Assembly: GCA_963716985.1 (NCBI GenBank)
Contig: OY970323.1
Coordinates: 1,664,001-1,728,000 of the forward strand
DNA: 64,000 bases
Source of the DNA: an uncultured bacterium
GTDB taxonomy: Bacteria; Chlamydiota; Chlamydiia; Chlamydiales; SM23-39
Direction of reading: 5' to 3'
Positions 4,543 to 7,192 of the stretch are shown one piece after another (position 1 is the first letter of the stretch; the number at the start of each line of letters is the position of its first letter). The notes under the pieces are model-generated. The model had not been told where the DNA came from and ran no database searches. It worked only from the letters and a program-made list of their open reading frames with translations. Position numbers and translations under genes: made by a program.

Positions 4543-5021
4543 GCGCCTAGATGAGATGGTTCGACTTTTTCCGCTTCAGCAGCCACTTTTAAATGAATGG
4601 TTACCGTGACCCCCTCTTTGAGCTTCAATAGAACGTCATGCATGCCAAGCTCTTTGATGGGCTTCTTTAGATGAATATTCTTTTTCTCAATAGGAAACTC
4701 TCCTTCCGGAAAAAGAGAAAGAATATCTTGCGCAGATACAGAACCATACATCTTGCCTTCGGGATCTACCTTGACATGGGCCGTCAATGTAATATCTGTC
4801 AAACGGCTGGCCAATTCTTCCGCTTCTTTTTTGTCTAGCACAGCTCTATGAGCTCTTTCTTCTTTGAGCTTTTCCTGCATGCGCAGAGTATGTTTTCCGG
4901 GATGTATTCCTTTTTTTTGAGGAAGAAGGAAATTTCGAGCATAGCCGGTACGTACGGAGACAATCTCTCCGCTTCTTCCTAAATCATCAACATCTGCTAT
5001 TAGTAAAACATTCGTTCTCAT
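4539..5021 (-). CDS. rplI: 50S ribosomal protein L9
   Basis: LGRSGEIVSVRTGYARNFLLP, GKMYGSV, PIKELG. Confidence 0.97.
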   Translation of the reverse strand: MRTNVLLIADVDDLGRSGEIVSVRTGYARNFLLPQKKGIHPGKHTLRMQEKLKEERAHRAVLDKKEAEELASRLTDITLTAHVKVDPEGKMYGSVSAQDILSLFPEGEFPIEKKNIHLKKPIKELGMHDVLLKLKEGVTVTIHLKVAAEAEKVEPSHLGA

Positions 5022-5028
5022 GGCAGCC

Positions 5029-5316
5029 TCAATCTTCGGTTACGAAGGGTAGAAGAGCCATATAGCGGGCTCTTTTAATTGCCTTCTTTAAAATTTGTTG
5101 ATGAAAAAAAGATACGCCCGTAATACGCCTTGGCAAAATCTTTCCTCTTTCCGTAATGAACTGCTTCAAAGTTTCTATGTCTTTATAGTCAATCGCTTTC
5201 ACGTTGGACGCCGTAAAGGGACACTCCTTTTTCTTCTTTACAAATCCCCCTTCCGGCCCGGAAGCGGATGATGGTTTTTTAAAATCAGATGAATATGATG
5301 GTCCTTTTCCAAACAT
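5029..5316 (-). CDS. rpsR: 30S ribosomal protein S18
   Basis: [26 protein letters not shown]...[13 protein letters not shown]. Confidence 0.97.
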
Positions 5317-5321
5317 TGCCG

Positions 5322-5669
5322 TTACCTCTCCATGGGTTTGAGTGGTTTGAATTCCAAAGTCTCTAAAATCTTTTCCGTTCGCATCGTCATAAATCGAAGA
5401 AGATCTTCATGAAGCTGATAATCCTTGATCAGTTCTTTATGCTTGAGTGAGGGAAGGGAAAAATAGAGGAGATAGTAAAAGCCTTCTCTCTTGCCTCTGA
5501 TTTCATAAGCGAGGCGTCTTCTTCCTTGATCATGAGTCTTATGGATCTCGCCCCCTCTTTCGACAATGCCGTTTGTGATCTTATCCAAAGCTCTCTTTCT
5601 AGCTTCTTCACTAAGGGTTGCATTAATAATGTACATTCCCTCGTAAAGATACTTTCTTTCTTTTTTCAT
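5322..5669 (-). CDS. rpsF: 30S ribosomal protein S6
   Basis: [16 protein letters not shown]...GFYYL; native ATG at 5669. The ORF track's extra 16 N-terminal codons come from the inserted element. Confidence 0.95.
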
Positions 5670-5738
5670 CCTATTGACAGCGCGGAAACCCACTCCTTTA
5701 GGGGTGGGAGGAAGCACTGCTCCTTTGTTGTTAAGTTT

Positions 5739-5762
5739 AAAAACGGGGGGATTTCTCCCCCC
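5739..5762 (-). terminator. Intrinsic terminator-like hairpin 3' of the omega-RNA
   Basis: Minus strand GGGGGGA-GAAA-TCCCCCC-GTTTTT. Confidence 0.7.
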
Positions 5763-6017
5763 TAGCAGTTACCTGCAATCTCCGATTTCCCGGGTAAAGT
5801 TCCCCTCGCCAAAGTTATGGAGCGGTTTATATGTTAGCAGCACTGGTTTAACCCGTAAGCCTGTTTAACCACTAACCGCAGGATCCAGAACTGGGGTGGC
5901 ATTCCGGAGTGCCTATATATTCGCTCCTAACGTAGTCTCTAAATACGCAAGAGACTGAGGCTGGTCAACTTCAGGCCTGATTTCTCAAGCCTTTCCCTTC
6001 AGGGAAGGGTGGTTGAC
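5763..6017 (-). ncRNA. HEARO / omega-RNA (IscB guide RNA scaffold), orphan
   Basis: Motifs in the expected order: GTCAAC..GTTGACCAGCCTCAG, GACTACGTTAGGAGCG, ATAGGCACTCCGGAATGCCACCCCAGTTCTGGA, CTGCGG, GGTTAAACAG, CAGTGCTGC, AAACCGCTCCATAACTTTGGCGAGGGGAACTTTACC. Pairings GGAGCG/CGCTCC, AGTCTCT/AGAGACT and CCCC/GGGG are intact. The 3' limit is approximate. Confidence 0.88.
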
Positions 6018-6036
6018 TCGTCATTCCTCTTTCTAA

Positions 6037-6636
6037 CTAAATTTTTTTACGAGACCTATTGGCTCGATTCATTGCTTGCACAACTCCCTCTCTCAGCCAT
6101 AATGCAATGATCTCTACAGCCTCTTCCAAAATCCATGGAAGCGCTCTTTCCTCATCTTGGCTAAAGGGAGCCAACACATATTCCTCCAAACTTCCCTCTT
6201 CTCGCGGTCCGATGCCTAAGCGAAGCCTCGCATATGCATCACATCCTAAATGCATTTCAACACTTTGCAGACCCTTGTGGCCCCCGCACCCGCTATGTTC
6301 TTTCAGTCGAAATTCCCCAAAAGAGATATCCACATCATCCACAACCACAAGTAGCCGGCTCATCTCGATCTTAAAATAATCCATTCCACATCGGACCGCC
6401 TCCCCGCTCAAGTTCATGTAGGTCTCGGGCACGAGCAGAAAAACATTTTTTTCTTCGATTTTTCCGTTGGCTTGCAATCCCTTCAACTTGGGGGATTTTT
6501 TAAAACTCCAACCCCATTTCTTTGCAAAAGCTCCTACTGCCAGAAACCCCATATTGTGGCGCGTCTTCTCATACTCTTTTCCAGGGTTGCCAAGTCCTAT
6601 AATCAAGTAGTTAGAAGAAATCACCATCTCATGCAC
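6037..6636 (-). CDS. pth: Peptidyl-tRNA hydrolase
   Basis: LIIGLGNPG..YEKTRHNMGF, TYMNLSGEAV, GGHKGL, RLRLGIG. Confidence 0.97.
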   Translation of the reverse strand: MHEMVISSNYLIIGLGNPGKEYEKTRHNMGFLAVGAFAKKWGWSFKKSPKLKGLQANGKIEEKNVFLLVPETYMNLSGEAVRCGMDYFKIEMSRLLVVVDDVDISFGEFRLKEHSGCGGHKGLQSVEMHLGCDAYARLRLGIGPREEGSLEEYVLAPFSQDEERALPWILEEAVEIIALWLREGVVQAMNRANRSRKKI

Positions 6637-7192
6637 GCGGCTTTGTCACAAGAGCAACGACTTCTTGCATCTGTGCTAAGGACTTTACGCCTTTTGGAAG
6701 GACAATGTCTTTGACTCTTTTTGTATGTCCCAATTCTAAATGGGCCACATCGATCTGAAACGCTCCAGGAATGTCCTTTGGCAGACAGCTCACCCTAATC
6801 GATCGCATCGTCTGTCTCAAGAGTCCGCCCACCTTCACGCCAACGCAAGCCTCTTCCCCAACGCATTCGATAGGGACGGCAACTCTAACTTCCTTTTTTG
6901 GGGAAAGTTTTTCAAAATCCAGATGGATCACTTCATAACTCGTCACATCATATTGAATTTCTTTCACGATCGCCGAAAACGTTTCCTTTTCACTTTTCAA
7001 AGTAAACACGGTCGTCGACAAACGTCCCTTTTGCATCTCGTTCAAAATTTTATTAAAATCATGAGCGCTGAGCGAAATATTCTCATTTTCTTGGCCCTTA
7101 GCATAAATGATCGCTGGAATAGATCCTTGAATGCGAAGCTTTTTAATATCGCTTTTACCGGCTCTTTTTCGGTGAAATATTGCAAGTTCCAT
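6629..7192 (-). CDS. rplY: 50S ribosomal protein L25/general stress protein Ctc
   Basis: LRIQGSIPAIIY, HLDF, GVKVGG; lies between prs and pth. Confidence 0.95.
   Translation of the reverse strand: MELAIFHRKRAGKSDIKKLRIQGSIPAIIYAKGQENENISLSAHDFNKILNEMQKGRLSTTVFTLKSEKETFSAIVKEIQYDVTSYEVIHLDFEKLSPKKEVRVAVPIECVGEEACVGVKVGGLLRQTMRSIRVSCLPKDIPGAFQIDVAHLELGHTKRVKDIVLPKGVKSLAQMQEVVALVTKPRA

Follow-up and report, generated by a model that had tools for sequence, protein, structure and literature searches.

An orphan omega-RNA mini-transposon without iscB inside the pth–rpsF–rpsR–rplI operon of a Chlamydia-related bacterium

Introduction

HEARO RNA, the family held in Rfam as RF02033, was reportedly described by Weinberg et al. 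in 2009. The ISC transposons, as presented in the parts of Kapitonov 2016 (PMC4810608) available to us, have 5′-GTCA termini and subterminal imperfect hairpins, insert at N|ATGA without duplication and are matched by empty sites in relatives. In the accessible portion of Meers 2023 (10.1101/2023.03.14.532601), the canonical right end of the element delimits the HEARO RNA that precedes iscB, RF02033 is described as being without downstream structural elements, the guide is the 5′-adjacent flank and iscB loci are biased towards a co-oriented upstream gene. The same portion reports PATE-like elements, which encode omega-RNAs but no protein and depend on nucleases in trans, and gives a model in which cleavage by the nuclease at the donor site that the element has left leads to its being re-copied. 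The sections of Hirano 2022 (PMC9581776) at hand cite Altae-Tran et al. 2021 for stand-alone omega-RNAs working with IscB, and give NTGA-type target-adjacent motifs (TAMs) for the related IsrB. Here we analyse a 64,000-nt stretch of contig OY970323.1 (GCA_963716985.1; positions 1,664,001 to 1,728,000), hereafter the window, on which all coordinates are based unless stated otherwise, and in it a 348-nt unit at 5670–6017 on the minus strand that carries a HEARO-type omega-RNA between pth and rpsF.

The unit is almost certainly a protein-less, non-autonomous derivative of an IscB-type IS200/IS605 (‘ISC’ group) transposon. The best explanation of the locus as a whole, which we consider probable, is that of an orphan omega-RNA mini-transposon that is transcribed by read-through and relies on IscB supplied in trans. 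A first-pass annotation of the window had likewise placed an orphan omega-RNA mini-transposon ahead of rpsF, and this reading is supported by the HEARO match, by further copies in the genome, by iscB genes elsewhere and by an empty site in a sister species. The genome containing the window (G000) is a single contig (C1) of 2.07 Mb, and it was compared with relatives in a sample of 41 genomes of the same order, G000 being counted among them.

Results

A full-length omega-RNA in a unit with exact boundaries

An Rfam covariance search placed HEARO (RF02033) at 5794–6017 on the minus strand with 142.8 bits (E = 2.4e-31; gathering score 83), and the match spans the full length of the model (positions 1–211 of 211). 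It is the one strong match in a permissive Rfam scan of 5000–6700, and across the whole 64-kb window only HEARO and one tRNA lie above the gathering thresholds. The first-pass annotation had proposed an omega-RNA scaffold with intact pairings and a covariance search against HEARO as the check; the significant, full-length minus-strand match bears this out, as do base pairs kept by changes on both sides (see below). The coordinates 5670–6017 that it gave for the unit prove to be the exact boundaries of the element. These boundaries are identical in all copies in the genome, which start with GTCAAC and end with ATAGG|ATGA, and in an alignment of the copies with their flanks all sequences diverge upstream of GTCAAC.

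Following Meers et al., we refer to the HEARO-side end at 6017 as the canonical right end and to the ATGA-side end at 5670 as the canonical left end. All parts of the unit are read on the minus strand. The 5′ end of the omega-RNA scaffold (5794–6017) is the canonical right end, with a subterminal hairpin at 5990–6009. Directly 5′ of the element, the native pth–rpsF spacer at 6018–6033 would provide a putative 16-nt guide, the length being assumed and the position taken from Meers et al. 2023; it contains AGAGGA, the displaced native Shine–Dalgarno (SD) sequence. Past the Rfam model the omega-RNA continues in a 3′ extension (5763–5793), common to the window copy and both iscB-linked copies, with two small GNRA-loop hairpins, of which CCGG-GAAA-UCGG is predicted by RNAalifold and GCAG-GUAA-CUGC was read by eye. 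There follows, in place of iscB, a terminator-like GC hairpin with a T-run (5739–5762; terminator scan match at 5762..5745), which consists of a 7-bp stem (6 GC) and GTTTTT over 5762..5739; the module replacing iscB measures about 35 nt. An A/U-rich linker, AAACUUAACAAC (5727–5738), is part of the TTTAAC-type motif common to the mini-elements described below, and the unit closes with the iscB-distal, canonical left end (5670–5726; nhmmer E = 1.6e-16, covariance model 91.8 bits). This end holds AAAGGAG at 5720–5726 (GGAG at 5720–5723), an outer clamp stem formed by 5714–5719 with 5678–5683, an imperfect TnpA-type hairpin at 5689–5708 and an 8-nt tail.

Inverted repeats lie at 5990–5998/6001–6009 and 5745–5751/5756–5762. 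With the plus strand folded as DNA, the left end has the form of 19 nt and a hairpin and the right end that of a hairpin and 8 nt, which we take to be the IS608-type geometry. In keeping with IS200/IS605 elements, and as previously suggested for this unit, both ends carry subterminal imperfect hairpins (5689–5708 and 5990–6009) without terminal inverted repeats.

The unit was also said to lack a nuclease or transposase open reading frame (ORF), and none was found in it: its frames of at least 40 aa are one of 64 aa and one of 79 aa, both on the opposite strand and both with 0 Pfam families at E up to 1. No iscB ORF lies directly downstream of the window omega-RNA within the unit; one is present at 2 of the 11 copies in the genome. 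The motif AAAGGAG had been interpreted as a leftover ribosome-binding site (RBS) of iscB. This is ruled out, as the motif is part of the iscB-distal end of the transposon: both full elements of the genome have it as the codons K-R-S near the 3′ end of iscB, and in them the iscB start follows the omega-RNA directly, without an AAAGGAG-type motif.

Copies of the family and IscB partners in the genome

HEARO was matched 11 times in the 2.07-Mb genome, with 9 matches exceeding the gathering score, and 0 times in 14 control genomes searched in the same way. Both further copies and iscB genes elsewhere had been put forward as checks by the first-pass annotation; there are 10 copies besides that of the window, and two intact iscB genes with linked omega-RNAs. 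The latter form two full elements (C1:166141–167768 and C1:1818584–1820215) in which the omega-RNA is followed by a 442-aa iscB within an open frame of 464 aa. Both products match RRXRR at 234–237 bits as well as HNH, match solved IscB structures (E 5e-39 to 6e-25) and carry the motifs IDPGS, VETV, EIDH..N and DHWIDA (RuvC and HNH motifs, read by eye). The iscB ORF extends into the terminal hairpin, and its stop is a TAA in the hairpin loop.

Six mini-elements, including the window copy, are built from the omega-RNA, a GC hairpin with T-run, a TTTAAC-type A/U-rich linker and the last ~57–70 nt of the full element. The hairpin/T-run is present in 6/6 mini-elements with differing stem sequences and is missing from both full elements. 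The same layout, including the hairpin/T-run, occurs in G008, from another genus, and in G029, from another family. The varied stems and this recurrence indicate that the mini-element layout is an established lineage and not a single deletion event.

Decay forms are represented by c1222, with an internal deletion, by c21 and c1049, which are further decayed, and by 12 solo ends. In copy c1222 (C1:1222537–1222965), what is left of iscB is its first codons and final ~70 nt, and the hairpin/T-run module is absent; here an orphan omega-RNA arose independently, by internal deletion. A deletion of ~25 nt lowers the HEARO score of c1222 to 66.7 bits. The omega-RNAs fall into two subfamilies, A, which includes the window copy and both iscB-linked copies, and B, which consists of c389 (C1:389116–389379, minus strand) and c35 (C1:35378–35648, plus strand). 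The subfamily B copies have the mini-element layout and are 70% identical within the subfamily and 45–49% identical to A. No iscB cognate to subfamily B was found in the genome. A weak RRXRR match at C1:1505980–1506102 (16.5 bits, 103-aa frame) may be a third, decayed iscB.

The genome further contains two identical IS200-type tnpA units and one broken tnpA. The proposal that the unit is mobile by means of TnpA and IscB encoded elsewhere is upheld in part: intact iscB is present, and a Y1 transposase with matching ends was not found among the three tnpA loci inspected. The ends of the tnpA units share 8 nt (TCAATAGG) with the ends of the IscB elements, but on the wrong strand, and we attribute this identity to chance. 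In the two identical units, tnpA seems to be split immediately behind its ATG by a group II intron (C1:755320–757990, with a copy around C1:1970077; L015 and L016). The intron has a reverse transcriptase/maturase ORF and scores 38.9 bits against Rfam Intron_gpII (cut-off 40), and GTGCG stands directly after the ATG; one of the two units adjoins the tmRNA gene.

Insertion at the rpsF start codon

The unit inserted at N|ATGA before rpsF after the split from the sister species. In G001, which is of the same genus, 99% complete and has 0 HEARO matches, the site is empty: the pth stop TAG is followed by agaggtgcaacagg and then by ATGAAAACA, with 14 nt between the stop and ATGAAA. The filled site of the window reads TAG, ttagaaagaggaatgacga, the 348-nt element and ATGAAAAAAG. 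It follows from the empty site that ATGAA belongs to rpsF and that the element entered exactly between the native SD and the start codon, moving the former 348 nt away. There is no target duplication (flanks GACGA|...|ATGAA). The ATGA at 5666–5669 (minus strand) is thus the target site, the presumed TAM and also the native rpsF start codon, ATGAAA being kept in the empty site of G001. Two further clean empty sites in G001, at the SDF symporter and at SctL/FliH, bring the clean cases to three; the RuvC site is ambiguous in that genome, as the N-termini differ.

Among the relatives, rpsF was found in 31/31 genomes searched. HEARO occurs in 7/41 genomes of the sample and in no relative at the rpsF locus. 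At all 19 loci of relatives examined, rpsF directly follows pth, separated from it by at most about 230 nt, and an insert at this junction was seen in 0/19. Conservation of the spacer in distant Chlamydiae, which the first-pass annotation had named as evidence that would speak for an ancestral leader, was accordingly not observed, and the G001 site is empty. A ~23-nt motif (CCATCGACTCCGAGCATTGGAG-like) lies just upstream of rpsF in L029, L030, L031, L033, L034, L035 and L037 and is not present in G000 or G001. Rfam searches on three of these seven loci (L030, L031 and L034) returned only two weak microRNA-family matches, below gathering scores, and the motif of the seven relatives may be an unrecognised rpsF leader.

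The genes around the element run, all on the minus strand, in the order prs, rplY/ctc, pth, spacer, rpsF, rpsR, rplI. The co-oriented gene upstream of the element, and likely source of read-through, is pth (6037–6636; Pept_tRNA_hydro, 203 bits), and the start codon of rpsF, encoding ribosomal protein S6 (5322–5669; Ribosomal_S6, 85.9 bits), abuts the element. The Pfam matches of the flanking genes agree with the operon setting pth–rpsF–rpsR–rplI given earlier. The accompanying figure of 348 bp for the pth–rpsF spacer is correct for the element; the whole spacer (5670–6036) measures 367 nt, that is the 348-nt element and 19 nt of native spacer.

Constraint, expression and use of the RNA

The window copy has the highest covariance score of all 11 copies, above both iscB-linked ones. 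An RNAalifold analysis of 9 copies shows both bases altered with pairing retained at 17/63 predicted pairs; three such compensatory pairs stand in a row in the window copy, and its CCGG-GAAA-UCGG hairpin stays paired via a G·U wobble. This pattern in the alignment favours RNA-level constraint on the window omega-RNA at least until recently. That IscB still uses the RNA today is about as likely as not.

A consensus scan of 5500–6800 detected no sigma-70-like promoter. The pth gene ends 19 nt upstream of the element on the same strand, and a crude ORF scan found a co-oriented ORF at most 100 nt upstream in 8/11 omega-RNA copies, a ninth case, the 84-codon frame at c35, being doubtful. At copies full166, c1491, c21 and c389 the upstream co-oriented frame reaches or enters the element. 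Coupled genes classically overlap at ATGA, which then serves as stop and start together, and insertion at such a site would add a short C-terminal extension, read from the omega-RNA end, to the upstream protein. A different setting is seen at c1919 (L003:1212–1377, ~C1 1919059–1919224), which ends 4 nt before tRNA-Glu(UUC), followed by tRNA-Lys(UUU); the ATGA target is there no start codon, and the terminator-like hairpin precedes tRNA genes.

When the 16-nt flanks of the 11 copies were searched against the genome, no flank matched exactly at another place, the window 16-mer matching its own site only. Allowing up to 2 mismatches gave further matches to some flanks, and among those listed none lies directly before ATGA. 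The lack of a second exact match fits self-site homing rather than regulation of other loci, and a regulatory role there akin to CRISPR interference (CRISPRi) is for this reason unsupported.

Start-codon adjacency of the iscB-distal end

An nhmmer profile of the left end identified 21 copies in the genome at E below 0.01, 9 in omega-RNA elements and 12 as solo ends. These are followed by ATGA in 19/21 cases and by ATGAA in 17/21, and in 18/21 an ATG directly after the end opens at least 79 codons on the same strand; the exceptions (3/21) are a tRNA site, an ATGG site whose frame runs for 16 codons, and a weak match. Pfam names 15 of the 18 end-fed genes: S6, secretin, autotransporter, FKBP, GT2, PP2C, adenylate kinase, SDF, YbbR, RuvC, FliH/SctL, Cdd1, SDR, methyltransferase and a weak V-ATPase-E/HrpE-like match. 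As the Pfam domains often begin at residues 2–17, the ATG after the end is taken to be the true start; the adenylate kinase domain begins at residue 34, where the true start may be an internal ATG. For comparison, 23% of all genomic ATGAA sites open at least 79 codons. Against a generous null limited to start-like or non-coding ATGAA sites (fraction 0.495), the observed 18/21 corresponds to P = 6e-4; this null is a crude one, and the copies lack independence.

A covariance model of the left end without the ATG matches in 18/41 sample genomes, against 7 with HEARO. Genomes with ends and without a HEARO match are G001, G002, G003, G004, G017, G024, G026, G028, G032, G034, G036 and G038, G026 having 16 ends; such ends could be fossils, or ends shared with TnpB-type elements. 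Inspection covered 26 of the 54 matches in relatives (those given loci, L203 excluded). ATGA comes directly after 17/26 of these, and in another 3 an ATG is found within 5 nt; 12/26 open at least 79 codons and 6 open only 2–23 codons. By eye, the N-termini encoded by the longer frames resemble MetG, GpsA, an epimerase and the SctL orthologue in another family. In G032 (L200) the end lies at the start codon of the SctL/FliH orthologue, as it does in G000 at C1:389019 (c389), and the site is empty in G001, G004, G005 and G012; the two look like independent insertions at the same start codon.

Of the 80 named IscB relatives listed, which were also considered, 19 with full-length loci and spread over several phyla were inspected by eye. 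An ATGA opening at least 93 codons lies just past the iscB-distal end in 8/19 (the end of one of these, L080, not being recognisable), 3/19 have an ATGA with frames of at most 10 codons, and in 8/19 none was found or the locus ended. The term ‘start codon’ has 0 occurrences in Kapitonov 2016 (PMC4810608), and among the papers listed in literature searches none dealt with IscB in the Chlamydia-related group or with start-codon insertion, as judged by titles and the starts of abstracts. The closest named IscB relatives, among the matches listed, are from metagenome-assembled genomes of Rhabdochlamydiaceae and Chlamydiia.

A possible portable ribosome-binding site

Split ribosome-binding sites, such as those of phage T4 genes 38 and 25, contain a hairpin between the SD and the AUG that brings both together. 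The left end resembles such a site in that its GGAG immediately precedes a stable stem, the 3′ end of which is 8–10 nt from the AUG; it differs from the T4 case in that the module would here be carried by a transposon end to many genes. Over 20 copies, the outer stem around the TnpA hairpin is 95% paired, with 5/6 pairs changed on both sides, and 0/500 shuffles reach the values observed for the whole left-end structure. When 41 copies from 14 genomes are considered (with 3/41 rows misparsed in the count of stem forms and in the strand test), the outer stem takes 10 perfectly complementary forms, GGAG lies directly 5′ of it in 39/41 and its 3′ end lies 8–10 nt before the element end in 38/41. 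The centroid fold of the window left-end RNA is exactly the clamp stem and the hairpin, and the 16S tail carries the usual CCUCC. A strand test of RNA versus DNA selection on the clamp stem gave G·U 6 versus A·C 4, which does not separate the two.

One reading of these alignments and folds, which we hold to be less likely than not, is that transposons of the IscB family with an N|ATGA target systematically land on start codons with a plug-in initiation module, an invariant GGAG clamped by the covarying stem 8–10 nt from the host AUG, and that after decay of the remaining element the end persists as the 5′ untranslated region (5′ UTR) of rpsF and 17 other genes. If true, the module would keep the invaded gene expressed and would explain the occurrence of ends in 18/41 genomes, including ones without omega-RNA or IscB. 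The mini-elements of omega-RNA and hairpin would form a lineage of their own, persisting as parasites of IscB that consist of guide RNA only.

Discussion

Our results suggest how an omega-RNA without its own iscB could be maintained in an operon for ribosomal proteins. The element would have no promoter of its own and would be transcribed by read-through from pth; its RNA would carry about 16 nt of the flanking spacer as a 5′ guide and would end, or be processed and stabilised, at the GC hairpin. IscB from the two intact elements may load the window RNA in trans, and the complex would recognise only the vacated site, through the guide match and the ATGA TAM, so that re-copying would be favoured should a Y1 transposase excise the element. 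As rpsF, rpsR and rplI would still be expressed through the element, the hairpin presumably cannot be a tight terminator.

Several observations weigh against this account. Single-sequence folds of the ends are no better than shuffles (z about −0.8), and the support for the end hairpins comes from their conservation across copies. The end hairpins of the resident IS200 units (GCAGCCC..GGGCTGC) differ from the ends of the IscB elements, so that present-day mobility is unproven. The window copy is the most diverged of the full-length subfamily-A omega-RNAs (79–84% identical to the others), which means that the resident IscB may no longer bind its RNA. A terminator-like hairpin directly before essential genes is also awkward unless it is leaky, and an outward promoter was not found in the promoter scan; with essential genes downstream, the hairpin would have to be either leaky or a 3′-end stabiliser after processing in the A/U-rich linker.

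Divergence of this kind would also be expected of an inert fossil, that is a dead remnant whose RNA exists only within the pth–rpsF message, is unused by IscB and is kept since its removal would harm rpsF expression. The window omega-RNA is 83–84% identical to the iscB-linked ones, compared with 90–95% for the orphans c1491, c1003 and c21, a transposase with matching ends was not found at the tnpA loci inspected, and the genome displays a decay series from c1222 through c21 and c1049 to the 12 solo ends. However, the substitutions in the window copy preserve the pairings and its covariance score is the best of the 11, which speaks for the RNA having been under selection until recently, if not longer, and we regard the fossil as unlikely. 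Far less credible, to the point of being refuted by the empty site and the multi-copy distribution, is an ancestral r-protein leader, a riboswitch-like regulator of rpsF that merely resembles HEARO. Its position 5′ of an r-protein operon and the short conserved motif before rpsF in several relatives are what such a leader would predict, but the insert is absent from the junctions of all 19 relatives, whose gaps are all under about 230 nt, their rpsF motif is unrelated to the element and, in the three loci scanned, matches no Rfam family, and the same unit precedes unrelated genes, with two copies linked to iscB.

A further possibility, to which we give somewhat less than an even chance, is that the host has domesticated the insertion as a leader, the iscB-distal end supplying the RBS of rpsF and the hairpin/T-run tuning read-through from pth; this is compatible with either the mini-transposon or the inert fossil. 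It is consistent with the displacement of the native SD by 348 nt and with the finding that 0/18 end-fed genes have an SD-like 4-mer at −20..−4 while GGAG is found at −54..−57 in 17/18. The clamp stem ends 8–10 nt before the ATG in 15/18, with a mean pair probability of at least 0.65 in 16/18. Across the 14 genomes GGAG is kept while the stem varies, as described above, and ends survive in genomes without a HEARO match. On the other hand, an SD-like 4-mer occurs at only 42% of crude gene starts (controls 20%), so SD-independent initiation is common, and the unpaired probability of GGAG is only 0.07–0.50. The stem and GGAG could serve the transposase on DNA instead, and the 18 junctions share one sequence and hence are not independent. 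The ‘domesticated structured RNA’ that the first-pass annotation had offered as its alternative gained no support of its own.

Read as an orphan omega-RNA mini-transposon, the locus offers a well-resolved natural example in a Chlamydia-related lineage, with exact boundaries, an empty site, IscB partners in the same genome and a conserved mini-element design. The ATGA target steers such elements to the start codons of essential genes, yet they are tolerated there. If the end supplies an RBS, a selfish element would lower its own cost and would be a source of new 5′ UTRs for host genes. The combination of guide RNA and 3′ hairpin would, if the account holds, be a compact natural module of possible use for expressing omega-RNAs.

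The class to which the element belongs is already known, since it fits published stand-alone omega-RNAs, protein-less IS200/605 derivatives and the ATGA target. At the RNA level it does not differ from HEARO RF02033, having a full-length match above the gathering score and many copies per genome; the HNH ORF associated with HEARO is missing from the window copy. The comparisons that follow extend to the parts of the cited papers available to us. With the ISC elements of Kapitonov 2016 it shares the 5′-GTCA terminus, the ATGA target without duplication, the hairpins and the empty sites, but those elements carry iscB and that of the window does not. Like stand-alone omega-RNAs, it is a locus without adjacent iscB in a genome that encodes IscB elsewhere; in contrast to them it is part of a delimited unit of 348 nt that retains both transposon ends and has a hairpin/T-run in addition. 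PATE-like elements are similar in having both ends, no protein gene, a transposase and nuclease in trans, a guide from the flank and a co-oriented upstream gene. For these, however, TnpB is named as the trans nuclease, whereas the window element is of the IscB type, with a terminator-like module and start-codon adjacency. It is this start-codon adjacency, together with the GGAG-plus-clamp module, that may be the new part.

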